Translations under genes and position numbers: made by a program | Notes under the pieces: generated by a model | Seen by the model: only the letters and a program-made list of their open reading frames with translations | Told to the model about the DNA's origin: nothing | Databases searched by the model: none | Part shown: piece after piece, positions 8,473 through 42,727 of the stretch | Position numbering within the stretch: position 1 is the first letter of the stretch | How the letters are laid out: every line of letters begins with the position of its first letter | Virus record (IMG/VR): IMGVR_UViG_3300037247_000257 | Location: 1 to 54,015 of that record | Direction: 5' to 3' (one strand) | Source: a virus | Taxonomy: Duplodnaviria > Caudoviricetes | Length of the DNA: 54,015 nt

Positions 8473-9735
8473 ATGGCAACATTTAGATTAAAAGAGTGGT
8501 TTCTTACAATAACTGCTACTAACTCAAGAAGAGGTACTCGTCTTAGAGATGGGGATAGACCTACACAATCAACTTTTGAAGATCTACTTAAATCAAGTGT
8601 CTTTAAAACAGAAGCTAATGATAAAGCAAAAGTAAACGATGCTACTAAACCACTACCTGAAGTAGTTGGTCATGTGGCTTTGGCTACGGATGAAGAAGCT
8701 AAATCTAACGCTACTCAACCTCAAGATAGAGCTCTTGCTGCACAACCTTCTCAAATAACTACAGCGAAAGGCGTTGAAGAGAGCGACTTAAATCTATCGT
8801 TAGACACTATTAGTAATGATAATCAAATAGACAACCCTATTGTCTTTGACGATACAGCTATAGAAGTTGAAGATGAAGGAACAACGAGAAACGATTATTT
8901 GATTAGATTCAAAGAATCTTTTAGAAACTTTCTTTCTAGTCTTGTAGAAACAATAAACGATATATCACTAAGGTTAGTTGCAGTTATAGAACAAACTGAA
9001 ACAAATAGACAAGACATTGAGACACTTGTTGACTTAGATGGAGACGTTAGTGCTGTTATAAACGGCATTGCTCCTAAGGGGACTATTATACAAAGTGTAT
9101 TAGGTACTGGAATGAATACTGATTATTGGTATAAGATGGATGGTGGAGCAAGACTCTCTAAATACAATAATGATAATGTTAATGACGGCCCTACTTCAGC
9201 ATGGGCTCTTTTCCAAAACTTAACAGATATAATAGTAGAAGACGGTCTTTTGTTTGGTTTCAAAAACATAGGAGCTCCGGTTTTTGATAGCGGGTTAGGA
9301 CTTGGTGAAAGGGTTACTTCAGGCAACGACTGGAAAGCTACTTTTAGGCAAACTGACATACCTAAGCATAATCATGGAAGTAATCTTTCCACTTCAATAG
9401 AAGGCGGACACAGGCATCAATACGGTACAATTCTTGGAGAAAACGACAAGAACTTTACTGATGCTTTTGCTGCAGGCGCTGATAGAGCTTTTGATTCTGA
9501 TAGAGTTCCTACTAGGTCTTGGTGGACTGATGAATTCAATACCCCTGATGAATCATCTCCTAGTGGTAATCCTGATAAGTTAGTTGCTATAAACGGTCAG
9601 TCTAAAGGAGGAAGAAGAGGTTTCCATAAACACAATATAACTGGAAGCATATCTAATTACGGATCGCAAACTACAACTTATCCAAGTGTAAACGTTCCTA
9701 GAGTAGGTGTAAACTATTACATTAAGATAAAGTAA
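8473..9735 (+). CDS. Tail fibre / tail-collar-like protein
   Basis: GDRPTQSTFEDL N-terminus, PKGTII collar-like motif, PKHNH/GGHRH/HKH His motifs, NYYIKIK C-terminus. Confidence 0.7.
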   Translation: MATFRLKEWFLTITATNSRRGTRLRDGDRPTQSTFEDLLKSSVFKTEANDKAKVNDATKPLPEVVGHVALATDEEAKSNATQPQDRALAAQPSQITTAKGVEESDLNLSLDTISNDNQIDNPIVFDDTAIEVEDEGTTRNDYLIRFKESFRNFLSSLVETINDISLRLVAVIEQTETNRQDIETLVDLDGDVSAVINGIAPKGTIIQSVLGTGMNTDYWYKMDGGARLSKYNNDNVNDGPTSAWALFQNLTDIIVEDGLLFGFKNIGAPVFDSGLGLGERVTSGNDWKATFRQTDIPKHNHGSNLSTSIEGGHRHQYGTILGENDKNFTDAFAAGADRAFDSDRVPTRSWWTDEFNTPDESSPSGNPDKLVAINGQSKGGRRGFHKHNITGSISNYGSQTTTYPSVNVPRVGVNYYIKIK

Positions 9736-10246: not shown

Positions 10247-10573
10247 TTATACTTTTCTTAATCTAAACAAAGCTTCATTTAACTCTTTTTGAGTTTTATT
10301 TAGCTCTTCTTCTACGTATTCAAGCTTCCACTTATAACGCCCTACTTCTTTTAACGCTTCTTTTCGGCCTAACTCAGCCTCAGACTTTTTTCGTTTTTGA
10401 ATAGCATCGTTAATATAGTTTATCCGCTTACTAGAAACATCTATTATCTGAAACATTCCGATAAAGAAAACTGACGCAAAAGCTATGTTTCCTAAAATGA
10501 ATCCTGCTATTGCACCAGGGTGAACTTTTCCTATCTCATAGGTGTAGTCCATCCATTTTATCCACCACTCCAT
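10247..10573 (-). CDS. Membrane protein with coiled-coil tail
   Basis: One TM segment followed by a heptad-rich C-terminus. Confidence 0.55.
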   Translation of the reverse strand: MEWWIKWMDYTYEIGKVHPGAIAGFILGNIAFASVFFIGMFQIIDVSSKRINYINDAIQKRKKSEAELGRKEALKEVGRYKWKLEYVEEELNKTQKELNEALFRLRKV

Positions 10574-11481
10574 TAGAAATTACCTTCTTGTACTTGATAT
10601 ACTTTCAAACCTAGACGTCTTGCATGGTCTACAACCTGGTTACGATCATCGTAAAGAGCTTCTATGAAATACGACTTAGCGATATCTCTCCACATATCTT
10701 CTTTGACTTTCCAATCAGGTTCATACGATCCTTCAGGTCTGATATAGATATCATCATATACAATATCATTCTCCGCCAACCAAGCCATAGTCTCTTGGAT
10801 ACAAGAACCATCACGACCAGTACAGATAATAATAAACTTCCCGTTATTTTGGTGAGCCCAAAGAGCTTCTCTAACGTTTTCATCAACTATATCTTGACCT
10901 ACCTTTTTCCAATCATATGGTTTTCTGTCTACCATGTGAGCAAGAGTACCATCAATATCAAAGATAACTGCTCCTTGTTTAGAAGCATCTCTCGTTATTG
11001 GCTTAGTAATCTTATCTTGCTTGAAGTCATAAGTAGCAATGAGATTCCTGTATTGCTCGTACTGTCTATCGATGACTTCTTTACCGACTTTACGAGCACG
11101 GTCTTCATCATTCATTATACAGTCGATCTTTTCAGTTTTCATTACATGACACTCAACCGGAACACCATAATGACTTAACTGTCTGATATACTTTTCTTTA
11201 AGGTGAGTATTGTCAACTATTACTACTTGGTTACAAGACAAAGCGTATCTAATTAAAGTGTGTTGAAACTGACTTACGTCCCACTCTTTACTTTTTATAT
11301 CTTCCGCTTCGTACCACTGGTGTATATCTTTTTCAGATAAACCTCCCATCATTTCTCGAAGTTTATCTCTGCCGATAATAACACAGTTTTCTCCTTTTTT
11401 ACGAATAGCTTCTGCTAAATAGCGAGCTGTCGTTGTTTTGCCGGATCCACTTGGCCCGACCATTGCTATAATTCTACTCAT
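10573..11481 (-). CDS. pseT: Polynucleotide 5'-kinase / 3'-phosphatase (T4 PseT-like)
   Basis: P-loop GPSGSGKT, RDKLR, HAD motif DIDGTL, C-terminal DDRNQVV; start placed at MSRIIAMV. Confidence 0.92.
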   Translation of the reverse strand: MSRIIAMVGPSGSGKTTTARYLAEAIRKKGENCVIIGRDKLREMMGGLSEKDIHQWYEAEDIKSKEWDVSQFQHTLIRYALSCNQVVIVDNTHLKEKYIRQLSHYGVPVECHVMKTEKIDCIMNDEDRARKVGKEVIDRQYEQYRNLIATYDFKQDKITKPITRDASKQGAVIFDIDGTLAHMVDRKPYDWKKVGQDIVDENVREALWAHQNNGKFIIICTGRDGSCIQETMAWLAENDIVYDDIYIRPEGSYEPDWKVKEDMWRDIAKSYFIEALYDDRNQVVDHARRLGLKVYQVQEGNF

Positions 11482-11705
11482 TGTTTCTGATCTTCTAAAT
11501 ATGCTATAGTACCTATTACCCCTACTACTGTTGCTATCAAGAACAGTACAAATGCTACAAAGCACTGAGCTGATGTACCTTCTTTTGATACAATAGCCCC
11601 TAATAAGCTAATAAGCATAATTACGCAAGATGTGATTGTTGACCCGATTAAAATCCTATGTATAAGATTGTCGGGTTGTTTTTGTGAATATCTGGAATCT
11701 TCCAT
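11478..11705 (-). CDS. Small two-TM membrane protein
   Basis: Two hydrophobic helices; start codon uncertain. Confidence 0.45.
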   Translation of the reverse strand: MEDSRYSQKQPDNLIHRILIGSTITSCVIMLISLLGAIVSKEGTSAQCFVAFVLFLIATVVGVIGTIAYLEDQKQ

Positions 11706-12262: not shown

Positions 12263-12704
12263 AACCTATCATCTTTAGAACCTTTTTTAACTCTGACTTA
12301 TTTTTGACTGTACCTGAGAACCAGTTATGATTATCCTCATACTCTTCCCAATTGGTTATTGTAAGTCTCTCCGGGTTTCTTTGTTCTACTTCAATGTAGA
12401 CATCACTCCCGTTTATCTTACTATTTCCTTTAAGTGTTAACCAGTGTTCAGAGTCTTGAGCTACCTTGAAACCCAAACTCTCTATGTCTTCCCTGTCTAG
12501 GTATTTGACTCTAACACAGTCAGAATTAAGAAGGTTTTCAATCTCTTTAAAATAAGAAAGTTCTGCTGTTAACTTATCAAAAGGCATATCTTTTCCAGGA
12601 ACGTACACAGCCCTGTTTCCTGAGAGTTCAATTCCAAATTTAGCCTCAAACTCAAACCCAACATGAAACTCTTCAATTGTCGGTGTGTAATATTTGTTTT
12701 CCAT
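12249..12704 (-). CDS. Hypothetical phage protein
   Basis: ATG overlaps the upstream TGA; YYTPTIEEFHVGFEFE N-terminus. Confidence 0.6.
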   Translation of the reverse strand: MENKYYTPTIEEFHVGFEFEAKFGIELSGNRAVYVPGKDMPFDKLTAELSYFKEIENLLNSDCVRVKYLDREDIESLGFKVAQDSEHWLTLKGNSKINGSDVYIEVEQRNPERLTITNWEEYEDNHNWFSGTVKNKSELKKVLKMIGYECK

Positions 12705-13555
12705 CAGAATATGTATCTTATAGTGTTCCAAGGTATCACTTCTTTGTGTACCTTCCTAAATTGATTTATATACTGTGCTTTCTTTTCTCGCTTGTATCGT
12801 ATGTTAACTCCTCCGTATTGAGACACTTTGCTTTCTTGTATCTCAGGTTTCCACAATAACTCTTCTCCCGGTCTGTTTGCATTAGCTGAGTGCTTATCCT
12901 TATTATGGGTAAGGAATATACACTCAGATAATACCTCATCCTTGTTATCGACATAATCAGACACCATTTCAAACAAGAAACGATAATCTTCTAGCCAACC
13001 ATCATAGACTATAATAGGTGAAAAGTTTATATGAACTTCGTACCCAGCATCTATGAATGCGTCTATGGCTTTTATCCTGTCGATTATAGGTGGTGTATGA
13101 GGTTCAAGTACAGAGCTTAACTTTTGCGGCATAAGACTAAACCTAATACGTATCTTCTTTTCTGGATTATAGTCCAAGAAGTCTATAGGTATGATCTTAG
13201 TGGCAAAGCTAGCTTTTATGTTACTGTGGTTCTTAAAGTAGTTGAATATATGATTCCACTGGTGATATTTAGAGTGTAAAGCAAAGTCTTCGTTGCATGC
13301 AATGTCGTAGGTATAATACTTTGGATCCGTTTGGTTAGGCTCTTTAGGCGGCAACCATGCGGCATGAGTATTGATAGCTGTTAGTATTGCGTTTGTGTTC
13401 TTTGCTACACTTAAATCATTGTTACCAGTATGTCGTTTCATATAACAGTACGAACAATCGAGTAGACAGCCGAAGCCGAAAGACGGACTTATAAAATCCG
13501 TACTTCGGCCTGACTCTCTGATTTCAAAAGACTTTCTATTTACCGTCTTTATCAT
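12704..13555 (-). CDS. Spore photoproduct lyase-like radical SAM protein
   Basis: CxxxCxxC in GCLLDCSYCYM; FATK, RIRFSLMPQ and HINFSPII blocks typical of SplB-like proteins. Confidence 0.8.
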   Translation of the reverse strand: MIKTVNRKSFEIRESGRSTDFISPSFGFGCLLDCSYCYMKRHTGNNDLSVAKNTNAILTAINTHAAWLPPKEPNQTDPKYYTYDIACNEDFALHSKYHQWNHIFNYFKNHSNIKASFATKIIPIDFLDYNPEKKIRIRFSLMPQKLSSVLEPHTPPIIDRIKAIDAFIDAGYEVHINFSPIIVYDGWLEDYRFLFEMVSDYVDNKDEVLSECIFLTHNKDKHSANANRPGEELLWKPEIQESKVSQYGGVNIRYKREKKAQYINQFRKVHKEVIPWNTIRYIF

Positions 13556-14598
13556 TCTATCTCCTTTCTAAGTTGAACAAACCCTCTAAAGTTACCTGAC
13601 CAGCCTTCTTCAATCACTCTATCCGTAGAGCCAACCGCTTGAGTTGTTCTAGCATTGAACATCATTTCTGACCCACTCATAGCTCTAGCGCAGTGCTCGA
13701 AAGGACTCATGTGACCCATAGCTTTCAATCTATCATAAAGCTTAATATCAGCTTCATAATCATCTTTACCTTCAAAGTTTAGATAAGATACTCTAGCACA
13801 TCTAGCAGTAGCTATCTTAACTCTGCAATCTTGAATAAAACTAAAGGGTACAGATGTTTCTGCTCCTTTATATAACTCACAAATTCTAGCAGAATCAATA
13901 TTGTCTTCAAATGGTATATGCCACTCACCAGCTTTCAACTCTTTAGGTTTAGACTCATTCATAGCATCCCACATAGCTTCAGCTAGTAGAGAGATATGGA
14001 TTTCTCCTTGTCCTTTGTTGATTTTGAGCCAGTCTAAGTCACTAGTTTTACTTAGTGTTTCTTCGTTTCCTCCGTGATAGTGTTTCCAATAGTCTTTCCT
14101 CGACTTAAACTTAGAGTTCTCGTTATCTGGACTGCCATACTGAGGACATCTCAACTCAAAGAAGTTATCATACTCTGTAGCAGTTACAATACAAGTGTAC
14201 CATTGGAAAGGTTCTAAGATACGGTTTACTAGTTGTTTGGTTACTCCGTTAGAGTTCATTGTTCTAGCCATATCTAAAACACCTCTAAGACTACGTTCCC
14301 AATCACACACATGAGCCATTATTTCCGATTCTTTCTCAAAATACTCAGTGCCTTGCATACCACTATGGGTTTTTTGGAACGCTACAGGAATGAAAGGATC
14401 TTCTTCTATATCCTTAATCATTTTGCTCGCAGGTATAGCACGACTACTAGCAGCATTACGTGAGAATAAACGGTGTGTAAGTAACTCGGCATGGATAATT
14501 CTTGGATAAGAAAGGACATAGGTTGTAATCCTATTACCATGCTTGTTAACACTATCTGCAATAATCTCTGCATTAATATTCTTTTTATTCATACTCAT
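13552..14598 (-). CDS. thyX: Flavin-dependent thymidylate synthase-like protein (ThyX/Thy1)
   Basis: ELLTHRLFSRNAASSRAIP, KQLVNRILEPF, ARCARVSY, HMSPFEH. Confidence 0.8.
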   Translation of the reverse strand: MSMNKKNINAEIIADSVNKHGNRITTYVLSYPRIIHAELLTHRLFSRNAASSRAIPASKMIKDIEEDPFIPVAFQKTHSGMQGTEYFEKESEIMAHVCDWERSLRGVLDMARTMNSNGVTKQLVNRILEPFQWYTCIVTATEYDNFFELRCPQYGSPDNENSKFKSRKDYWKHYHGGNEETLSKTSDLDWLKINKGQGEIHISLLAEAMWDAMNESKPKELKAGEWHIPFEDNIDSARICELYKGAETSVPFSFIQDCRVKIATARCARVSYLNFEGKDDYEADIKLYDRLKAMGHMSPFEHCARAMSGSEMMFNARTTQAVGSTDRVIEEGWSGNFRGFVQLRKEIE

Positions 14599-15974
14599 GA
14601 CTCTGCCTCTTCTGTGTCTACTGTTCCAGAATCTTTAATGATACCTTCTAGTACTTTAAACAAGTAACCTTTCTGCTTCAAGAATTTAGGCGTTAATGAT
14701 TCACCATCGATACGAATACATACACCTTCTCTTAAGTGCATAGGAAATACAGTAGATGGATCTTCACCCATAGAAACTACACGGTTAGAAATAGCTTCTT
14801 GCTGAACATGAAAGTGTAGAGTTTCTTCTGCTTCTGACATAGCTTTAGCTTTGATTCTCTTAAGCTCAGGCACATGTTGTACTCCCATTTGCTCACATCT
14901 CATCTTAACTTGGTCCCAAGATAAGTCCATCGACACTCCGTCCATGTTAGTCATAGTCATACGATAAACAAAGACTTTACATTCTTTAGGTTGGCACCCA
15001 TAAGTAAATGATGTAGTATTACCGTAAGCTTCAACAAAGTCTTTATAAACATCTTTATCCATAAAAGACTTAAGCTTCTTGTTACCTTGAGAAGGCATGA
15101 TTAGTTTCCCATCAGGTAAATACCCAACGATCTCATAATACACAGTCTCACCTTTTTCAAGCTTATCTCTAAACAATTCTCCAGTCGTAGTCCAAATGTC
15201 GTGCTCATAATACGATTCACCTTCTTTAGCTACATCACCAATAGTCTTTGTTACTCTACGCGAACCTACTACATGCTTATAAACCATGTGTTGATTCTCG
15301 TCGTTGGTTTTAAAGAGAACTTTACTTAGTAACCAGCTAGAAAACTTCTTTAACAGATTATCAGTTTTATAAATAACTGGCAAGTTGCCCACTCTACAAC
15401 TTGTTCCATGGAGCTTTTCCGTTACGATAAGAATCGAGCCTGGCTTTACATGCTGTAAGTTTCTCATAAATTGATCAGTATCGACATGCTCTTTGAACGT
15501 AGGTACTAGGTTTTCCTTAGCTTTTCCCTGTTTGTTCCCTTGACACGGGGAATTACTTACAACTTGATACTTCTTGCAGATTTCGTAGCTTCCCCAATTC
15601 ATGAACTGTTGCCCAAGGTTACTTTTATCTGGTAATTGCTTGTCTTTGTGAGTATATTCTAGTGAACTAATTGGCATCCATAACCCAGAACATTTTACAC
15701 CTTTTAATCGAATTGGTCTAACACGTCTGCTATCTTCAAGATAACCTGTTTTTGATTCGTCTACGTTTAAGTTAGAATGTCTGTACAAGTTGTTTTTTGA
15801 ACAAAACTCGTGACTTAACTCAGTTTCACAGTCAAATAAAATACCTAGTTCACCAGCTTTGTGCTCTTTACTCACAATAACTGTTTCTCCGAATATCGTA
15901 CTACTTACGATGCGGTCGGCTCCTTCAATAGGCTGAAGGTCTTTTAGTTCCGCGATGATTGCTTCTCCTGTCAT
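14595..15974 (-). CDS. ATP-dependent RNA ligase (DRB0094/Rnl2-like)
   Basis: N-terminal PIEGADRI OB-like domain, motif I TEKLHGTS, motif IV REGVCIR, motif V LKQK. Confidence 0.85.
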   Translation of the reverse strand: MTGEAIIAELKDLQPIEGADRIVSSTIFGETVIVSKEHKAGELGILFDCETELSHEFCSKNNLYRHSNLNVDESKTGYLEDSRRVRPIRLKGVKCSGLWMPISSLEYTHKDKQLPDKSNLGQQFMNWGSYEICKKYQVVSNSPCQGNKQGKAKENLVPTFKEHVDTDQFMRNLQHVKPGSILIVTEKLHGTSCRVGNLPVIYKTDNLLKKFSSWLLSKVLFKTNDENQHMVYKHVVGSRRVTKTIGDVAKEGESYYEHDIWTTTGELFRDKLEKGETVYYEIVGYLPDGKLIMPSQGNKKLKSFMDKDVYKDFVEAYGNTTSFTYGCQPKECKVFVYRMTMTNMDGVSMDLSWDQVKMRCEQMGVQHVPELKRIKAKAMSEAEETLHFHVQQEAISNRVVSMGEDPSTVFPMHLREGVCIRIDGESLTPKFLKQKGYLFKVLEGIIKDSGTVDTEEAES

Positions 15975-15991
15975 GACTAGTTTTTAAGCAT

Positions 15992-16020
15992 AAAAAAAAG
16001 CCCAGGACCTTCCTGAGCTT
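15992..16020 (-). terminator. Intrinsic terminator ending tRNA operon 1
   Basis: Minus strand AAGCTCAGGA-AGG-TCCTGGGCTT running into a T8 tract. Confidence 0.8.
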
Positions 16021-16024
16021 GTCC

Positions 16025-16261
16025 CTACTTGCGTAGGCCTTTTTGATAATGTTTTACATCACGTTCGTTTCGAGCTATGTCATACGGATTTTGTAGAAAC
16101 TTCCAATCACATATATTCCATGGATTGTAAAGCTTTCTGTATTCTTTTCCGTTGCTTAGTTCTCCTTTATAACGTCTAACAGCTTTGGCTGCTTGTCTTT
16201 TAGCATACCCGCCACGGCTTGAATCAGTGTACACTGACACTTTCTTTCTTGATCTGCTCAT
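16025..16261 (-). CDS. Small highly basic protein (MSRSRKK...WNICDWKF)
   Basis: 78 aa from ATG 16261; last gene of tRNA operon 1. Confidence 0.65.
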   Translation of the reverse strand: MSRSRKKVSVYTDSSRGGYAKRQAAKAVRRYKGELSNGKEYRKLYNPWNICDWKFLQNPYDIARNERDVKHYQKGLRK

Positions 16262-16316
16262 ATTCTCTAGGTTTATACCTAAAAGACTGTTCCTTTTTTC
16301 ATAATACAAATTTAAG

Positions 16317-16387
16317 TTGTCCGGGGAGGGATCGAACCTCCATTCTCGGCTTCAAAGGCCGGCGTCCTGCCATTAGACGACCAGACA
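16317..16387 (-). tRNA. tRNA-Gln(TTG)
   Basis: TGTCTGG/CCGGACA acceptor, CT-TTG-AA loop, GGAGG-TTCGATC-CCTCC T arm. Confidence 0.92.
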
Positions 16388-16440
16388 ATAATACAGAGTG
16401 TTCTTTATACCGTTAAACTCTTACAAACATTCTCAATGCG

Positions 16441-16589
16441 TGGAAGTGAGCACGGTTTTCACTTACTAAGGCAAACCCGTTCGCTACCACACTCCTTCAC
16501 TATATACCGTCGCTTCATTCCATAGCAGCTTACCTTTATCACAGCGCTATAATAAAGACCACAGTATAATCCACTTAGCCGGCACTTCC
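16441..16589 (-). ncRNA. Unassigned ~149-nt structured RNA closed by an acceptor-like stem
   Basis: GGAAGTG/CACTTCC-A closing stem; internal helices TATACTGT/ACGGTATA and CTTTATTATAG/CTGTGATAAAG; G-U pairs favour the - strand. Confidence 0.55.
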
Positions 16590-16590
16590 G

Positions 16591-16662
16591 AGGTTCCACA
16601 CAGATTCGAACTGTGCTCTGCTGATTACAAGTCAGCTGCATCACCAACAATGCTTTGGAACC
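16591..16662 (-). tRNA. tRNA-Thr(TGT)
   Basis: GGTTCCA/TGGAACC acceptor, GCTGA-CTTGTAA-TCAGC anticodon arm, TTCGAAT T loop. Confidence 0.93.
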
Positions 16663-16665
16663 TTG

Positions 16666-16739
16666 TGGGTGTCTTCGGGATTCGAACCCTGCTATCCGGA
16701 AGCACAACCCGGCGTAGTCGCCCAGACTACTTAAGACAC
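16666..16739 (-). tRNA. tRNA-His(GTG)
   Basis: GTGTCTT/AAGACAC-CCA, CCGGG-TTGTGCT-TCCGG anticodon arm; T stem slightly irregular. Confidence 0.85.
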
Positions 16740-16741
16740 AG

Positions 16742-16813
16742 TGGAGAGAGAGGGATTTGAACCCCCGACTCCCAGATTTTCAGTCTGATACTCTACCCCT
16801 GAGTTACCTCTCC
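16742..16813 (-). tRNA. tRNA-Phe(GAA)
   Basis: GGAGAGG/TCTCTCC-A, TCAGA-CTGAAAA-TCTGG, TTCAAAT T loop. Confidence 0.93.
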
Positions 16814-16902
16814 ATGGCTCCAGAGATTTTAGATCTTTACTCCAGAACTGATCAGCTTTTACCCACACTCCTCGTGGGTCCTCACAACCAGCTAAGTCGT
16901 TG

Positions 16903-16978
16903 TCTAGGTGGCAAGATTCGAACTTGCGTGCTCGTCCTTCCAAGGGACGCGAGATAAACCGGACTCCTCTACACCTAG
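16903..16978 (-). tRNA. tRNA-Pro(TGG)
   Basis: CTAGGTG/CACCTAG-A, CGTCC-CTTGGAA-GGACG, GCAAG-TTCGAAT-CTTGC. Confidence 0.93.
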
Positions 16979-16982
16979 ATAT

Positions 16983-17019
16983 AAAAAAAACCCTAAGCTC
17001 TTGGTGGAACTTAGGGTTT
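16983..17019 (-). terminator. Attenuator terminator of tRNA operon 1
   Basis: AAACCCTAAGTTC-CACCAA-GAGCTTAGGG followed by T8, ending 4 nt before tRNA-Pro. Confidence 0.88.
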
Positions 17020-17040
17020 AGTTAGTCAAAACAGCAGAAA

Positions 17041-17115
17041 TCAATCACACACACCTAAGTTCCGTCCTATAAAGGTCGGTTGAAATGGCGTATTATGTTG
17101 TGCTATCTTGTTCAT
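17041..17115 (-). CDS. Leader peptide 1 (MNKIAQHNTPFQPTFIGRNLGVCD)
   Basis: 24-codon ORF; codons 6-15 CAA CAT AAT ACG CCA TTT CAA CCG ACC TTT; contains the antiterminator GGAACTTAGG (17054-17063). Confidence 0.8.
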   Translation of the reverse strand: MNKIAQHNTPFQPTFIGRNLGVCD

Positions 17116-17119
17116 ATGG

Positions 17120-17151
17120 TAAACTTAGTCAAAGCTTTTTACTTTTGCAAC
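17120..17151 (-). promoter_or_regulatory. Bacteroidota-type promoter for leader 1
   Basis: GTTG-N20-TAAGTTTA versus consensus TTTG-N19-21-TAnnTTTG; ends 4 nt before the leader ATG. Confidence 0.5.
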
Positions 17152-17349
17152 CATATACTTGATATTATTACAAGAAACTCTTCTTTTGTAACCATTTATC
17201 ACATCTGTTGTGTGTGTTCTTATCATTAAGGTACCACAATCTGTCTGGTGTATTATTACACCATACTGCAAATAACCTGTGTTACTTACAAAGACTTTAT
17301 CTCCTACAAACAAGTCTTTACCGTTTATATCTGTTTCTGTTATTTTCAT
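17125..17349 (-). CDS. Small YopX/KOW-like beta protein
   Basis: DINGKDLFVGDKV motif. Confidence 0.55.
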   Translation of the reverse strand: MKITETDINGKDLFVGDKVFVSNTGYLQYGVIIHQTDCGTLMIRTHTTDVINGYKRRVSCNNIKYMVAKVKSFD

Positions 17350-17570
17350 AATACCATGATCATTTTTTCAGAGTTACCGTTTTGAACCAGTCTCCATAAA
17401 CCTCTGTTACCATCAGGATCAATAAGAATATTACCGTTTTTGTATCTTCTTACAGTACCTGTCCAAATTCGATGTCCCCAATCACCGTAAGCAACTCTTG
17501 CTCCGACTTTAATTTTTTTTCCTTTTACGTCTAGATGTAATTCTGACTCCTCCATTTCTTGTAAGTGCAT
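17346..17570 (-). CDS. Small YopX/KOW-like beta protein
   Basis: DVKGKKIKVGARVAY motif. Confidence 0.55.
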   Translation of the reverse strand: MHLQEMEESELHLDVKGKKIKVGARVAYGDWGHRIWTGTVRRYKNGNILIDPDGNRGLWRLVQNGNSEKMIMVL

Positions 17571-17694
17571 ATTGTTCTTTTACGTGTTTATGAAAAGCGG
17601 AATTTAATTCTTCTACAAAAGCATCGCCTCCGTAAGCAACAAAGTCTCCACACTGAACTTTGTTTAATCCATTTTTATCTCTTGTAACTTTCAT
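17509..17694 (-). CDS. Small protein related to the two downstream ORFs
   Basis: DKNGLNKVQCGDFVAY motif; ATG directly after tRNA-Ser(GCT). Confidence 0.45.
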   Translation of the reverse strand: MKVTRDKNGLNKVQCGDFVAYGGDAFVEELNSAFHKHVKEQYALTRNGGVRITSRRKRKKN

Positions 17695-17695
17695 G

Positions 17696-17781
17696 TAGAG
17701 AGACCGAGATTCGAACTCGGGGGCCCCAGAAGGACCACTCCCTTAGCAGGGGAGCGCAATCGACCGCTCTGCCATCTCTCT
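17696..17781 (-). tRNA. tRNA-Ser(GCT)
   Basis: AGAGAGA/TCTCTCT acceptor, CTCCC-CTGCTAA-GGGAG, long variable arm; discriminator is A rather than the usual G. Confidence 0.92.
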
Positions 17782-17787
17782 AAGATA

Positions 17788-18030
17788 CCGGTTCTCGTAC
17801 CGGCAAACGCTCTTTGATATGCTTAAGGCTATTATGACGTGGTTCGCACACACGCGTGTCGCACCTAAGCAGCATACCCTCATCTTCCTCCGAGTAGAGG
17901 TAAGTATATATCGCGACACTCTAAAGTTTCAGGTGGAAAGATTGTTACACCTTCAATTATTGACCGGTGAGAGACAAACTCCCGGTCACTCTTTCCTAAA
18001 GACGCCTCCTTGTCTGGCTGGGTCACCCCT
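17788..18030 (-). ncRNA. Unassigned ~240-nt multibranch structured RNA between the two tRNA-Ser genes
   Basis: Helices TGACCGG/CCGGTCA, GTGTCGC/GCGACAC, AGGTG/CACCT, CCGGT/ACCGG and closing GGCGTCTTT/AAAGAGCGTT; no credible sense ORF. Confidence 0.5.
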
Positions 18031-18034
18031 ACTG

Positions 18035-18120
18035 CAGAGGGACAGAGATTCGAACTCTGAACAGTGTTACCTGCTACTGGTTTTCAAGACCAGCTCCTCG
18101 TCCAACCACGGACTCCCTCT
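18035..18120 (-). tRNA. tRNA-Ser(TGA)
   Basis: AGAGGGA/TCCCTCT-G, CTGGT-CTTGAAA-ACCAG, long variable arm, CAGAG-TTCGAAT-CTCTG. Confidence 0.92.
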
Positions 18121-18210
18121 ATATGAGCAACATTTTATTTTACATCAGACTTGCTCACCGATAACTGATTTGTGCGTCGCCTGGGGCCAACTACACCAAC
18201 GCAGCGTATG

Positions 18211-18293
18211 TCCAGCCTTGAGGACTCGAACCTCGCCCCCGAAAGGCCCGGATTTACAGTCCGGGTGCTAGATCCAACTAGCTTTAAGTCTGG
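18211..18293 (-). tRNA. tRNA-Tyr(GTA)
   Basis: CCGGA-CTGTAAA-TCCGG anticodon arm, variable arm with TTCG loop, GAGG-TTCGAGT-CCTC; one acceptor mismatch. Confidence 0.88.
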
Positions 18294-18298
18294 ATAAT

Positions 18299-18331
18299 AA
18301 AAAAACCCTCAACGTAAAACGAAGAGGGTTT
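18299..18331 (-). terminator. Attenuator terminator of tRNA operon 2
   Basis: AAACCCTC-TT-CGT-TTT-ACG-TT-GAGGG followed by T7, ending 5 nt before tRNA-Tyr. Confidence 0.8.
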
Positions 18332-18352
18332 CTGTAAGTTATTAGAAAAAGT

Positions 18353-18421
18353 TTATACAGTATCCTCTTGTCGGTGTTTCTCCGATTTCTTTGAATAACT
18401 ATATAGCTCTACTCTAATCAT
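18353..18421 (-). CDS. Leader peptide 2 (MIRVELYSYSKKSEKHRQEDTV)
   Basis: 22-codon ORF; codons 7-10 TAT AGT TAT TCA and codon 13 TCG; contains the antiterminator GACAAGAGGAT (18362-18372). Confidence 0.78.
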   Translation of the reverse strand: MIRVELYSYSKKSEKHRQEDTV

Positions 18422-18425
18422 GTTG

Positions 18426-18457
18426 CTAAACTACAACTTGTGTTTCTATATTCCAAA
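18426..18457 (-). promoter_or_regulatory. Bacteroidota-type promoter for leader 2
   Basis: TTTG-N20-TAGTTTAG; ends 4 nt before the leader ATG. Confidence 0.6.
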
Positions 18458-18686
18458 CTGTTTCTGACATTTTTCACATACCTCGGTTCTTACTTCTTCA
18501 TATATACCTTAACCCGAAAAAGATTCTAAATACTTTGAATTACTAGTTTATTAAACGTTCATAAAAGCTTTGTCATCAATACCCATGTCGGAAAAGGGGC
18601 TACTTCAATAATTAGGACTTATTACTAAGCGTCTTCACAGATAGCGAATATTATAGACAAGAAAATAACGCACAATACACCCAGTA

Positions 18687-18905
18687 TCATAACTCACAGT
18701 GGATAGATCTGTCACCAGACGTACGTTTATTATACTTGTCATCTAACTTTTTTCTTTCTTCTTTTTCAAGACCTCCAAATAAAGTTGCAAAAGCATCTGC
18801 TTTTTTTTGGGATATCCTTGTTTGATAAGGTCCTTCTGCATAGTCGACTAAAGCAAAACCAAGAATGATACCTCCTAGTAATCCTAGAATAATTACAAGT
18901 ATCAT
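18687..18905 (-). CDS. Small membrane-anchored protein
   Basis: N-terminal TM helix. Confidence 0.55.
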   Translation of the reverse strand: MILVIILGLLGGIILGFALVDYAEGPYQTRISQKKADAFATLFGGLEKEERKKLDDKYNKRTSGDRSIHCEL

Positions 18906-20293: not shown

Positions 20294-20715
20294 TTGTTCT
20301 TTTCTTTAAAGTAATTTAATAATTCAACCCAATCACGGTCTGGGTCAAAACCGGCTTTATCGTCTAGCAAGACGTTGAAATAAGGCTTTTTATCAAAGTT
20401 CTGAAACTCATTGTTCTCAAGGCCCATACTAATCTGTACAAGACGCCAAGGCGTCATAGCTATATCACAAGACATAAAGTATTCTAAGTAGAACGCTTTC
20501 GCTTCTTGTGGACTACAAGTATACATGTACATCATAATATTAGGATTCTTACTCATTAACTGTAAAGTTTCTTTTGCTTTCGCGTAAAAACCTGTAGACA
20601 GTTGAGTTGAGTAAGTGGGTTCGAAAACAGTGCCATGGAGATCCACGGCAACTGCTATCTTATCCCATCCTCGGTGTTTCATCAAATCAAAAGCTTTGTC
20701 AAACACTTGTATCAT
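20290..20715 (-). CDS. HAD-superfamily hydrolase-like protein
   Basis: VAVDLHGTV, YTCS and KKPYFNVLLDDKAGF motifs. Confidence 0.7.
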   Translation of the reverse strand: MIQVFDKAFDLMKHRGWDKIAVAVDLHGTVFEPTYSTQLSTGFYAKAKETLQLMSKNPNIMMYMYTCSPQEAKAFYLEYFMSCDIAMTPWRLVQISMGLENNEFQNFDKKPYFNVLLDDKAGFDPDRDWVELLNYFKEKNK

Positions 20716-22127
20716 AACTTTGCTCTGTTAATTATGTTAGGCCATACTGGCGCAGACATGATTTTACCATTTTCAAAGACTACTTCTAAGACAGATTCAG
20801 CACCAGGAGCACTATTCTGTACTGTTCTGAAACCTTCTTGAGAACGTTCTAACGCAAGGAAGCCAAGTTTACTCTTCTTAAAAGAAGCATGTTTGTCCCC
20901 ATTACCATCAATTTCTGTTGGAGCTTTGAATACATCTTTCCATTCACCGTTAACACAGATGGCAGAACACTTAAACGCGAACTTCTGTGTATCTCGATTG
21001 ACTTTCTGCAGTAAAGCGCCACCCATCCCAAAGGCTAGGTTCTCTGTACTGTATCCAATCATGTTTATGTACTCAAGAGTCTCTCTCAGACTATCATAGT
21101 TCATACCGTCTCCTTGGATAACTCTTATCTTAGGATTCAAGATCTTGTAACCATTAACAACTTCACCACCAAATACCTTCCATAATTCAGAAAGTACTAC
21201 TTGCAATGTCATCTTAATGTCACCAGAATCAGGTCTAACTACTAAAACACCGTCTCTCGAAATAATCTCAGTTTTCAATGACGCCCAGTGTGTTCTACAC
21301 GCTTCTTGTATATCATAAGAATCTGAAACACAAGCTACTAATCCTGTTGGGTATTTTTCGAGCATGTTGCGATAAGCATCCACCTCATTTTGTTTTCCCC
21401 ATGACGTAATAGTACTGTGTTCAGATGCCGGGATAGAATAAGAAGGCATCATTGATGTTTTGTAGTATTCGTGAATGAAAGGTATTGCTACCAATGTATC
21501 AGAACCTACAAAGTTGATTAAGTGAGCTGCCCCACCTAGTGCTGCAGTTTCTACACTACTTGCACCTCTAAAACCAAAGTCATGCATCTTAAAAGACAAA
21601 GCAGTCTCAAATTCAGCATGACTAGGATAGTCGGTTGTTTCTTTTAAACTTTTACTAATTAGCTTCTTGCACTCTCTACTTAATGTTGCCACTGTAGTAG
21701 GATACCATACTTGTAATAACAAAGTCTCTAAGAAGTTAGTTAACCAAAAACACTTAGGATCAGTGTTCATAACCGTCATTAAGACGTTACTTACACCTAC
21801 AACAGTACCTTCTGGCACAGCTTCTATACGAACTGGTAATCTTCCACCGTGGTTTTCTACAATATGCATCCAACCTTCAATGTTAAATGTCCCCTTGCCC
21901 ATATGCGAGTCTACTATAGTTGACGCATGTAATACATCAGCTTTAGTAATTCTGTAACCTTCTAAATACTGTTTAAGTATATAGTGCAAACCAAAGAATA
22001 CTGTTTCTTCAAACTTTCCTCCTCGGCTCTCTAAGTATGAATAAACATACTCTGTACCTTCAGGGTACTGTCTTGCATGTGACTGCTTATAAGAGTCAGT
22101 CAACAACATGATATTATTGTTCCACAT
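20712..22127 (-). CDS. nadV: Nicotinamide phosphoribosyltransferase
   Basis: TDSYKQSH, HDFGFRG, PASEHS, RPDSG, IQGDG and FGMGG motifs. Confidence 0.95.
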   Translation of the reverse strand: MWNNNIMLLTDSYKQSHARQYPEGTEYVYSYLESRGGKFEETVFFGLHYILKQYLEGYRITKADVLHASTIVDSHMGKGTFNIEGWMHIVENHGGRLPVRIEAVPEGTVVGVSNVLMTVMNTDPKCFWLTNFLETLLLQVWYPTTVATLSRECKKLISKSLKETTDYPSHAEFETALSFKMHDFGFRGASSVETAALGGAAHLINFVGSDTLVAIPFIHEYYKTSMMPSYSIPASEHSTITSWGKQNEVDAYRNMLEKYPTGLVACVSDSYDIQEACRTHWASLKTEIISRDGVLVVRPDSGDIKMTLQVVLSELWKVFGGEVVNGYKILNPKIRVIQGDGMNYDSLRETLEYINMIGYSTENLAFGMGGALLQKVNRDTQKFAFKCSAICVNGEWKDVFKAPTEIDGNGDKHASFKKSKLGFLALERSQEGFRTVQNSAPGAESVLEVVFENGKIMSAPVWPNIINRAKL

Positions 22128-23079
22128 AATTCTTGATTATTTGTTTGTGATCATCTAAAATCTCCAAAGTACCAGCACGTAATTTATGCAAGCTTATCCA
22201 AGCTACTTCTTCTAAATCATCTCCAGCTTTTATATTACCTTGACACCACTTTAAGATAAATACTGTTGTAAACACTGCGTCTTTAGAACCACGATACCTA
22301 CGATCATTTAACTTTCTTGTCTCAAAATACGTAGGGTACTCTAAGTGTTCAAAGTCTAGTCCTGTTTCTTCATATACTTCTCTAACAACAGCATCTTCAA
22401 AAGACTTGTCAGATAAATCAACATGGCCACCAGGTAATCTCCACTGCTTTTCACCATGTTTACGTCCCATAAGAATGTAACTTACACCATTTTTACGCTT
22501 AGTTACAATAGCATCTACTGTTGGGTAAATGTTACCGTAAGGCTTAAACGTTTGAGCAGCAACTTGTCCAGCACGAAACCATTTGGCTTGTTCAGTAGTA
22601 CTTGGTGTTGGAGGATACTTTCTAATTTTAGTCGCTGATACATTAGGTAATGATTCTATTTCAGAAAACTTAAACTTTCCTGAGTAATATTTATTAAAAG
22701 AATCTCTACCTCCCATCAACGTTATATCAGTTGTATCAGGCACAAGAGTCATTCTCTTATGCATGTCAACAGTATCATCTAAACTCTTAGACCAAAGTTC
22801 ATCTGAAAATGGTATATCTTTCAACTCACCTACTACTACAGTAATATCAGTTCTGTTATGCCATTGTTCATTAAACAACCATTGTTCTATCATAGCCTTG
22901 CGACTACGTAGTGGTAAAGGATGTACCGATGTTGGATTATCACTAGTATAACCTACAAGAATTACACACATCACTTGGGCACGCTCTATAGCTAATCTAA
23001 TTAACTTTTCGTGCCCTTCGTGTAAGTAAGGTGTCTGAAACCTACCTACAACTACCGTAATATCATTTACTTCCGACAT
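22114..23079 (-). CDS. Bifunctional NMN adenylyltransferase / Nudix hydrolase (NadM-Nudix, NatV-like)
   Basis: GRFQTPYLHEGH (HxGH), SATKIR, Nudix box GGHVDLSDKSFEDAVVREVYEETGL. Confidence 0.92.
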   Translation of the reverse strand: MSEVNDITVVVGRFQTPYLHEGHEKLIRLAIERAQVMCVILVGYTSDNPTSVHPLPLRSRKAMIEQWLFNEQWHNRTDITVVVGELKDIPFSDELWSKSLDDTVDMHKRMTLVPDTTDITLMGGRDSFNKYYSGKFKFSEIESLPNVSATKIRKYPPTPSTTEQAKWFRAGQVAAQTFKPYGNIYPTVDAIVTKRKNGVSYILMGRKHGEKQWRLPGGHVDLSDKSFEDAVVREVYEETGLDFEHLEYPTYFETRKLNDRRYRGSKDAVFTTVFILKWCQGNIKAGDDLEEVAWISLHKLRAGTLEILDDHKQIIKNYVEQ

Positions 23080-41516: not shown

Positions 41517-41597
41517 TAGAGAGTACAGGATTCGAACCTGCAAATTGCTTACGATCAAGCGAGTCATTCCTTGGTATACCAATTCCGCCAACTCTCT
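41517..41597 (-). tRNA. tRNA-like RNA with Leu-type D loop and no canonical anticodon arm
   Basis: AGAGAGT/ACTCTCT-A acceptor, GGCGGAATTGGTATAC D region, GCAGG-TTCGAAT-CCTGT T arm; no 5-bp stem with a 7-nt anticodon loop can be drawn. Confidence 0.6.
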
Positions 41598-42336: not shown

Positions 42337-42353
42337 AATTAGATTTTTTAAAG

Positions 42354-42727
42354 TGGAGACGCAGGGAGTCGAACCCTGGTCCAGCGAAGCACTATGTCCA
42401 CACGATATACGAACGTAAAGGTTTTAAAGCTCCACAGCTACATCTTATTTACTGTAGGTGCCAAACAGAGCAGCGTTTTACATCTCTACCCGATGGATTC
42501 TAGTGTGACTAGTAACTTGTGCAACTTTCTGTTCCTCCGTAGTTACAACGGGCGCGATCCTATGCTGCTACAGCTACAGGTGCCACAAGGGCTCTCGCTT
42601 CGGTAAGTAAACTTACCATGATTGTCTCGTCGTTTCCGATTAAACAGTTGGAACGTTTTTACAGTGTCTCATTCCATCACTGGCCGCGTGTGTACATAGT
42701 TACAACCTGTCAATTCCGGTCGTCCCC
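42354..42727 (-). ncRNA. ssrA: tmRNA
   Basis: GGGGACG/CGTCTCC-A acceptor with G3-U70, GGAATTGAC D-loop analogue, CAGGG-TTCGACT-CCCTG T arm; internal tag frame 42637-42560 GNDETIMVSLLTEARALVAPVAVAA*. Confidence 0.93.

Follow-up and report, generated by a model that had tools for sequence, protein, structure and literature searches.

The DNA analysed here, a stretch of 54 015 nt that we call the window in its full length, is a fragment from an uncultured marine virus of the Caudoviricetes (IMG/VR record IMGVR_UViG_3300037247_000257) with an estimated completeness of 42%; it carries DNA polymerase, rIIA/rIIB-like, NAD-salvage and thymidylate synthase genes. We describe two blocks of tRNA genes on the minus strand of the window and the leader that precedes each of them, composed of a putative promoter, a short open reading frame (ORF) and an intrinsic terminator. 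With the default threshold, ARAGORN predicted seven tRNA genes within 16316-18120. An eighth, tRNA-Tyr(GTA), is present only below default thresholds (18292-18210, called at 95% of the ARAGORN default) and has a weak acceptor stem. The genes come in the order Tyr, Ser(TGA), Ser(GCT) (block 2) and then Pro, Phe, His, Thr, Gln (block 1), with three small ORFs between the blocks. A leader with its terminator and tRNA block is referred to below as a unit. The features of the two units are listed here, all of them on the minus strand.

Unit 1
17120..17150, minus: putative promoter, with the −33 TTG at 17150-17148 and, separated from it by 20 nt, the −7 box TAAGTTTA at 17127-17120 (one mismatch to TAnnTTTG)
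17041..17115, minus: leader ORF 1, 24 codons and stop, MNKIAQHNTPFQPTFIGRNLGVCD
17071..17100, minus: sensing block 1, codons 6-15, CAA CAT AAT ACG CCA TTT CAA CCG ACC TTT (QH-TPFQPTF)
17054..17063, minus: putative antiterminator strand 1, GGAACTTAGG, codons 18-21, exact complement of 17015-17006 (5′ arm and loop of the terminator)
16983..17019, minus: intrinsic terminator 1, 13-pair stem 17019-16988, ΔG −17.6, T8; tRNA-Pro follows after 4 nt
16316..16978, minus: tRNA block 1, Pro(TGG) 16978-16902, Phe(GAA) 16813-16741, His(GTG) 16740-16667, Thr(TGT) 16662-16590, Gln(TTG) 16387-16316

Unit 2
18426..18457, minus: putative promoter, with the −33 TTTG at 18457-18454 and, separated from it by 20 nt, the −7 box TAGTTTAG at 18433-18426 (one mismatch)
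18353..18421, minus: leader ORF 2, 22 codons and stop, MIRVELYSYSKKSEKHRQEDTV
18383..18403, minus: sensing block 2, codons 7-13, TAT AGT TAT TCA AAG AAA TCG (YSYS--S)
18364..18385, minus: small 1:2 hairpin of leader 2, TCGG 18385-18382 pairing with CCGA 18374-18371; overlaps the putative antiterminator strand 18372-18364
18299..18331, minus: intrinsic terminator 2, stem 18331-18303, ΔG −13.9, T7; its 5′ arm (∼18327-18318) pairs alternatively with 18372-18364
18210..18292, minus: tRNA-Tyr(GTA), ARAGORN at 95%, below the default threshold
18034..18120, minus: tRNA-Ser(TGA), ARAGORN
17695..17781, minus: tRNA-Ser(GCT), ARAGORN

The order that an initial annotation, made from the sequence alone, had given for both blocks (promoter, 4 nt, ATG, ORF of 22 or 24 codons, intrinsic terminator, first tRNA) was confirmed. 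The distance between terminator and first tRNA is 4 nt in unit 1 and 4-6 nt in unit 2. In both leaders 21 nt separate the stop codon from the hairpin, which is G+C-rich and has a run of T7 or T8.

Codon content of the leader ORFs

In the central block of leader 1, nine codons out of ten specify Pro, Phe, His, Thr or Gln, for each of which a tRNA follows downstream. All five Tyr/Ser codons of leader 2 are readable, by standard wobble, by the anticodons of block 2 (GTA, GCT and TGA), with the Ser codons AGT, TCA and TCG together covering both Ser anticodons. The specificity is reciprocal, as had been claimed: leader 1 is free of Ser and Tyr, and codons 1-15 of leader 2 are free of Pro, Phe, His, Thr and Gln.

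The window has 521 ATG ORFs with a length of 10-60 codons, and all of them served as a chance control. At least nine residues out of ten consecutive ones belonged to {P,F,H,T,Q} in two of these ORFs, leader 1 and a T/F low-complexity run; at least five residues out of seven belonged to {S,Y} in eight ORFs, leader 2 being one of them. Leader 1 is striking by itself, while leader 2 by itself is only suggestive. In this respect the initial annotation needs correction: for leader 2, both the enrichment and the antiterminator are weak when this leader is taken alone.

The Rfam families of Trp, His, Leu, Thr and Phe leaders had no match in the window, where the genes regulated would be those of tRNAs. 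T-box riboswitches had no Rfam match in the window at the gathering score, nor in 15900-18800 at E-values up to 5. An Rfam ‘trpB motif’ placed over leader 2 was rejected as being at chance level (25.3 bits versus the cut-off of 59, E-value 1.5).

Putative promoters and predicted leaderless start

In Flavobacterium psychrophilum, the sigma-A box TAnnTTTG is reported to sit at −12 to −5; the same text mentions clues of leader-peptide attenuation upstream of amino-acid operons and 5.5% of leaderless mRNAs (PMC9723704). Both units of the window have a (T)TTG element and, 20 nt on, a −7 box that deviates from the consensus at one position and is followed by 4 nt and the ATG. With the box at −12 to −5 and 4 nt more to the ATG, the transcript is therefore predicted to begin at the A of the AUG, and the leader mRNAs of both units are predicted to be leaderless. 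In 10 out of the 25 non-redundant units of the survey described below, both window units among them, the −7 box and the ATG are separated by 4-5 nt.

On the minus strand of the tRNA region in the window there are only two such promoter motifs, those of units 1 and 2; the −7 box of unit 1 overlaps the stop codon of an upstream ORF of 74 aa. No such motif was found between the terminators and the tRNAs in the window.

At 1963-1977 on the plus strand, a −7 box without mismatch (TATCTTTG) is accompanied by a −33 TTG; the box stands 4 nt before the ATG of a 145-codon ORF, whose transcript is a candidate for another leaderless mRNA of the phage.

Leaders and tRNA sets in 81 loci

In a blastn search of the region against GenBank phages the matches were confined to tRNA genes. 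A search of viral contigs with the RNA ligase encoded next to block 1 gave no relatives, and the three relatives found via the DNA polymerase (53-62% identity) were fragments without tRNA genes; these searches thus gave no close relative of the window leaders.

A 22-base pattern from phage tRNA-Pro retrieved 27 viral and 53 metagenome stretches. We ran one pipeline over 81 loci (1,060 tRNA calls, with ARAGORN at 95% of its default threshold). A terminator was defined, with a fold-based finder, as a hairpin followed by a T run, with ΔG of −11 or lower and its end within 30 nt of a tRNA. The leader was defined as the longest ATG ORF of 8-70 codons with the stop codon no more than 70 nt upstream of the terminator; it was picked blind to content. 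We observed 35 units with a terminator followed by a tRNA in 25 of the 81 loci, and 25 of these units were non-redundant. An ATG ORF was present in 32 of the 35 units, with a distance of 21-29 nt from its stop to the terminator in 23 out of 32.

For the 25 non-redundant units the leader residues belonging to the unit's own tRNA set made, on average, 0.497, in comparison with 0.364 ± 0.019 when tRNA sets were permuted among leaders; none of 20,000 permutations reached the observed value. In the 20 units with sets of no more than 10 amino acids the best 10-residue window had 7.55 own residues versus 4.51 ± 0.37 expected from permutations (0/20,000). Leader 1 of the window gave a higher score with its own set than with any of the 19 foreign sets.

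Phages with two leaders allow a comparison within one genome: 10 out of 12 such comparisons favored the leader's own block over the block of its sibling. The failures were unit 1 of locus L042 and a case in locus L046, where the longest ORF was the wrong pick. Leader 1 of the window, compared with its sibling's set, has nine own-only residues and no sibling-only ones. Covariation of leaders with tRNA blocks across other phages, which had been proposed as a check on the initial annotation, was borne out by the permutations, by the sibling comparisons and by the units of the phage described next.

Individual loci: Cellulophaga phage phi4:1 and others

A weak match to tRNA-Pro led to Cellulophaga phage phi4:1, whose tRNA array has three units of the same build. 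The three leaders differ from each other, and each of them matches its own tRNA block. In unit A the leader MKIQRLHLQELEQPIISGGTGV (..QRLHLQELEQP..) and a terminator are followed by tRNAs for Pro, Glu, Gln, His, Leu, Leu and Arg. In unit B the frame ..TKTGITVIDKTKGARA..GDTVIG (..TKTGITVIDKTKGARAYLGDTVIG), which lacks an ATG and for which the GenBank gene call begins at TTG, precedes a terminator and then Ala, Lys, Ile, Gly, Met, Asp, Thr, Val, Arg and Met. In unit C the leader MKTNYCTYNNSNWSFSYDTG.. (..NYCTYNNSNWSFSY..) and a terminator are followed by Tyr, Ser, Asn, Trp, Phe and a tRNA with a GCA loop.

Two of the phi4:1 tRNAs are annotated as pseudo in GenBank (locus L007 in our set, 9198-9279 and 9651-9725); one of them was called Asn(GTT) by ARAGORN and the other has the GCA anticodon loop. 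The GCA loop agrees with the Cys codons in the leader, and Asn codons are likewise present there. Furthermore, a tRNA with a GCA loop in locus L048 (1070-1143) was given no identity by ARAGORN, and the leader block of this unit has a Cys codon. Judging from these codons, leader content predicts the likely identity of tRNAs in phi4:1 and L048 that were annotated as pseudo or left without an assignment.

A conserved ORF of 46-48 codons, of the type MKAIQNIHQQLSTATRALNTWSDSLCGDVILGFAGYNNEPKQGGTGV (e.g. L009 3641-3784), was observed in loci L009, L011, L012, L015, L017-L020, L024, L028, L030, L031 and L034. Nearly all 20 amino acids are used in it, and it precedes a terminator heading a near-complete tRNA array; in this family the terminator lies 94-223 nt ahead of the first called tRNA. 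The C-terminal GGTGV/GGTEV of this ORF is similar to the end of leader A of phi4:1. In locus L022 strong terminator-like hairpins (2120-2157 and 2468-2500) stand 6-8 nt before tRNA-Pro and tRNA-Asp and there is no ORF upstream; thus, some hairpins in tRNA arrays are not leader-peptide attenuators.

Alternative pairing of leaders with terminators

For the 25 units, the final 75 nt of every leader were paired in silico with the 5′ arm of the terminator, both the unit's own and foreign ones. With the own arm the mean energy was −12.1 kcal/mol, versus −7.6 ± 0.45 kcal/mol for the null (0/20,000), and in 12 out of 25 units the own leader was the best of all for its arm. The duplex of leader 1 of the window (−13.4 kcal/mol) was the best of the 25, above those of all 24 foreign leaders.

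The dependence on ribosome position was modelled by folding transcripts cut just before the 3′ arm of the terminator, with a ribosome footprint of 28 nt. With no ribosome, in both leaders, the 5′ half of the ORF is taken up in a long hairpin with the stop region, and the arm of the terminator is free. With the A site at codons 5-13 of leader 1 the antiterminator captures 10-11 of the 13 arm bases; with the A site anywhere from codon 15 through the stop, as well as with no ribosome, it is lost and 4 of the 13 bases are paired. In leader 2 an A site at codons 5-13 lets the antiterminator capture 8 of 13 arm bases; it captures none of them when the A site is at codons 15-17 or at the stop, or when there is no ribosome. 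The positions that permit the antiterminator are thus those of the sensing blocks (codons 6-15 in leader 1 and 7-13 in leader 2). Over all the units the modelled ‘on’ positions were enriched in sensing codons with an odds ratio of 2.1, a rough value, as positions are autocorrelated and several units switch uncleanly.

The initial annotation had noted in each window leader a segment able to pair with the 5′ arm of the terminator. Such pairing turned out to be general across units, and the modelled position of the ribosome switches it in both window leaders in the way that trp-type attenuation requires. In these models the antiterminator excludes the terminator depending on where the ribosome is located; leader 1 shows the effect clearly, leader 2 in a weaker form.

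Proposed mechanism

We consider it likely that the tRNA blocks form separate operons, each controlled by ribosome-mediated attenuation of the trp/thr/ilv type and with its own products closing the loop. The anatomy of the units, the statistical excess of matching codons, the covariation across phages and the alternative pairings support the core of the initial annotation, in which codon-sensing attenuators read by ribosomes stand before tRNA operons. How the leader is translated and coupled to transcription, in which direction it switches and how its products feed back we infer as follows. Host RNA polymerase would start at the Bacteroidota sigma-A promoter, with the A of the ATG as +1, making a leaderless mRNA on which a ribosome would load at once and trail the polymerase. 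If the sensing block is decoded fast, the ribosome would reach the 3′ part of the ORF or its stop codon and mask the antiterminator strand; the terminator would then form 21 nt past the stop, and the tRNAs would not be made. If usable aminoacyl-tRNAs of the kinds specified by the block are scarce (Gln, His, Thr, Pro and Phe for unit 1, Tyr and Ser for unit 2), the ribosome would stall in the block. The stall would open the 5′ hairpin that locks the leader and free the antiterminator strand, which would take the 5′ arm of the terminator and let the polymerase proceed into the tRNA genes. The newly made tRNAs would quicken decoding and thereby close the unit, a negative feedback acting per block. 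Codon-usage mismatch, host shut-off or defence nucleases could be the trigger; anticodon nucleases are named as an example of a trigger and not as a finding.

A number of observations weigh against this mechanism. It takes transcription-translation coupling in the host as an assumption, and amino-acid starvation would trip the switch too, in a situation where added tRNA gives no help. Complete leaders, when folded at equilibrium, keep the terminator at every ribosome position; the switch must therefore be kinetic. Leader 2 forms with its terminator arm a duplex of −9.3 kcal/mol, which 7 of the 24 foreign leaders equal, and in the footprint model it spuriously pairs the arm with the ribosome at codons 17-21. 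The content score of leader 2 is 5 out of 10 and beats only 10 of 19 foreign sets, a low rank due to its tRNA set having just two amino acids. Its tRNA-Tyr is absent from the default calls of both ARAGORN and Rfam. The sensing blocks contain codons for amino acids without a downstream tRNA (Asn at codon 8 of leader 1, Lys at codons 11-12 of leader 2), and the Thr codon ACC of leader 1 is not read by the anticodon UGU under standard wobble. The test at the level of isoacceptors was null: 57 out of 88 Ser, Leu and Arg codons were readable by the tRNAs versus 55.0 ± 3.2 expected, and 6,486 of 20,000 shuffles reached the observed count; thus, the specificity is shown for amino acids and not for codons. 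Finally, 3 of the 35 units have no ATG ORF (unit B of phi4:1 and two in L022), and 56 of the 81 loci, many being fragments, yielded no unit under the criteria of the survey.

Alternatively the units, still being ribosome-read attenuators, might report how much translation the cell can sustain in general or how far infection has advanced (through the availability of ribosomes or global amino-acid starvation) rather than the supply of the particular tRNAs behind them. The isoacceptor result speaks for such a general sensor, and so do L026, L080 and the family of 46-48-codon ORFs, in which one long leader with nearly all 20 amino acids stands before a whole array. In split arrays, however, leaders follow their own blocks, as seen in the 10 favorable sibling comparisons out of 12, and the partition of residues in leader 1, with nine own-only and none sibling-only, would be needless for a sensor of this kind; we find this explanation unlikely. 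The polarity might also be the reverse of the one proposed, so that smooth translation of the leader would aid read-through, the ribosome pushing the polymerase or melting the terminator, while stalling would terminate; tRNAs would be made only while translation works. Although the switch geometry is modelled and a leaderless design ensures close coupling, the stop codon is located 21 nt before the stem (21-29 nt in 23 of 32 units), too distant for a terminating ribosome to melt it. In addition, footprint folding gave the antiterminator only with the ribosome held in the sensing block, and the scheme amounts to a positive feedback without means of starting. We regard the reversed polarity as very improbable.

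The least probable explanation, to which we give hardly any credit, is that the short ORFs are chance frames, or micropeptides with functions of their own, and that plain terminators insulate the tRNA genes from upstream transcription. Terminators without an ORF do occur before tRNAs, as in the two cases of L022, and leader 2 considered alone is about a 1-in-65 event (8/521). Still, the match of leaders to their own sets was reached by none of 20,000 permutations; leaders unlike in sequence nevertheless track tRNA sets and are complementary to their own terminators, and an unconditional terminator 4 nt before a tRNA, with no later promoter, would silence the tRNA genes wholly. Attenuation that senses the amino acids of the unit's own tRNA block is, in our view, the explanation to be preferred.

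Neighboring genes

Downstream of both tRNA blocks and on the same strand, the window encodes two proteins that together resemble a T4-like RNA repair pair.

14595..15974, minus: RNA ligase (PF09414 and PHA02142 OB domain), just downstream of tRNA-Gln
10573..11565, minus: polynucleotide kinase-phosphatase (PNKP; AAA_33 kinase and HAD_PNKP), 4 kb beyond the RNA ligase

In T4 the enzymes Pnk and Rnl1 mend tRNA cleaved by the anticodon nuclease PrrC. Given the proximity of the repair genes, tRNA damage is a reasonable context for the units, in keeping with the destruction of host tRNAs considered in the initial annotation.

The gap between the two tRNA blocks (17125-17694, minus strand) contains three small ORFs of 61, 74 and 74 aa with no Pfam match. 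The first of them begins directly after tRNA-Ser(GCT) and the last one ends within the −7 box of leader 1; therefore, read-through of unit 2 would continue into unit 1.

Other genes observed on the minus strand include a tmRNA gene at 42351-42727 (Rfam RF00023, 76 bits, with the tag peptide given by ARAGORN) and, ∼750 nt downstream of it, a weak tRNA-like gene at 41517-41597 (31.9 bits) with an odd anticodon loop in the ARAGORN call. A nicotinamide phosphoribosyltransferase and a NUDIX/cytidylyltransferase-like protein, both of NAD salvage, are encoded at 20712-23079, and a spore-photoproduct-lyase-like protein at 12704-13555.

A contig of 693 nt from a relative, the one obtained from four DNA runs, spans unit 2 at a depth of ∼7. 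Among the differences listed for it, some affect codons 4, 5 and 12, others the 4-nt spacer or the loop of the terminator, and none of those listed is in the five Tyr/Ser codons or the stems; we gave this contig no weight as evidence. In a relative's contig from a marine metagenome run, X4, 123 nt are missing from the spacer between the two Ser tRNAs (window 17910-18034), and the Tyr-Ser spacer (window 18121-18209) is riddled with small gaps. Judging from this contig, spacers between tRNAs look dispensable.

Implications

A broader proposal, which we put forward tentatively and hold to be possible rather than probable, is that in several phage lineages the tRNA genes work as supply circuits under feedback control, in which leaderless multivalent leaders gauge decoding speed for each block and open only the operon that brings relief. 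In the window, next to the PNKP and RNA ligase pair, such circuits and tRNA repair might form one response to loss of host tRNA caused by anticodon nucleases or by host shut-off.

tRNA genes are held to be controlled at their promoters, by growth rate and the stringent response. If attenuation by the leaders is true, tRNA genes would make a new class of attenuator-controlled genes, and phages would meter tRNA output against real decoding speed, block by block; the division of phage tRNA arrays into particular groups would then be easier to understand. The units would report directly which tRNAs are removed by host defence, giving a testable link between phage tRNAs and host defences that target tRNA, and they would serve as small portable sensors of individual tRNA pools. 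Leader sequences would foretell the identity of odd or degenerate tRNAs, as with the two GCA-loop tRNAs foreseen from Cys codons of their leaders. Phage phi4:1 with Cellulophaga baltica is a cultured system with three such units, open to direct testing.

Comparison with known systems

The attenuators of enterobacteria include thrL (sensing Thr and Ile), ilvL/ivbL (Leu, Val and Ile), trpL, hisL, pheL and leuL. The phage units share with them the short ORF with regulatory codons, the intrinsic terminator, the antiterminator that excludes it as set by the ribosome position (in the phage units, according to the folding models) and the use of several amino acids per leader. Unlike the enterobacterial attenuators, the phage units would regulate tRNA genes and not biosynthetic enzymes, so that the product would feed back directly on the sensor; the leaders would sense up to five amino acids in the window and up to ∼20 in other phages. 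Further differences are the predicted leaderless mRNA, the location in phages and the absence of matches to Rfam leader families.

Closer in its target is the pheM leader, which controls the pheST operon for phenylalanyl-tRNA synthetase in Escherichia coli. There, as proposed for the phage units, leader-peptide attenuation governs a component of decoding by the level of charged tRNA; pheM, however, belongs to a cellular genome and controls the synthetase of a single amino acid, whereas the phage units would control the tRNAs themselves. T-box riboswitches likewise make antitermination conditional on the state of a specific tRNA, and their targets are genes for tRNA charging. A T-box, though, binds uncharged tRNA directly via a specifier codon, with no ribosome involved, while the phage units would be read through a translated ORF. 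The combination of tRNA genes with a kinase-phosphatase and an RNA ligase is found in phage T4 as well; we know of no leader-peptide control of the T4 tRNA genes.

Leaderless short ORFs rich in cysteine codons are described in mycobacteria as cysteine-responsive attenuators (bioRxiv 10.1101/834739). These polycysteine ORFs are reported to be leaderless, with the AUG at the 5′ end, as predicted for the phage leaders, and to have a codon content that ties the downstream operon to amino-acid supply; they differ in sensing one amino acid, in controlling cellular biosynthetic genes, with no tRNA genes among the targets, and in belonging to a different phylum. In F. psychrophilum, a member of the likely host group, ribosome-mediated attenuation has been suggested (PMC9723704); unlike in the tRNA units, the targets named in that report are cellular amino-acid operons, and only 5.5% of the mRNAs are reported to be leaderless. 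A full-text literature search, with most subscription journals outside its coverage, gave no paper in which tRNA genes, of phages or of other genomes, are controlled by a leader peptide. The class of mechanism is already known. What is new in the phage units, as proposed here, is the kind of gene regulated, the feedback of the product directly on its sensor, the range of amino acids that one leader senses and the predicted absence of a 5′ leader from the mRNA.

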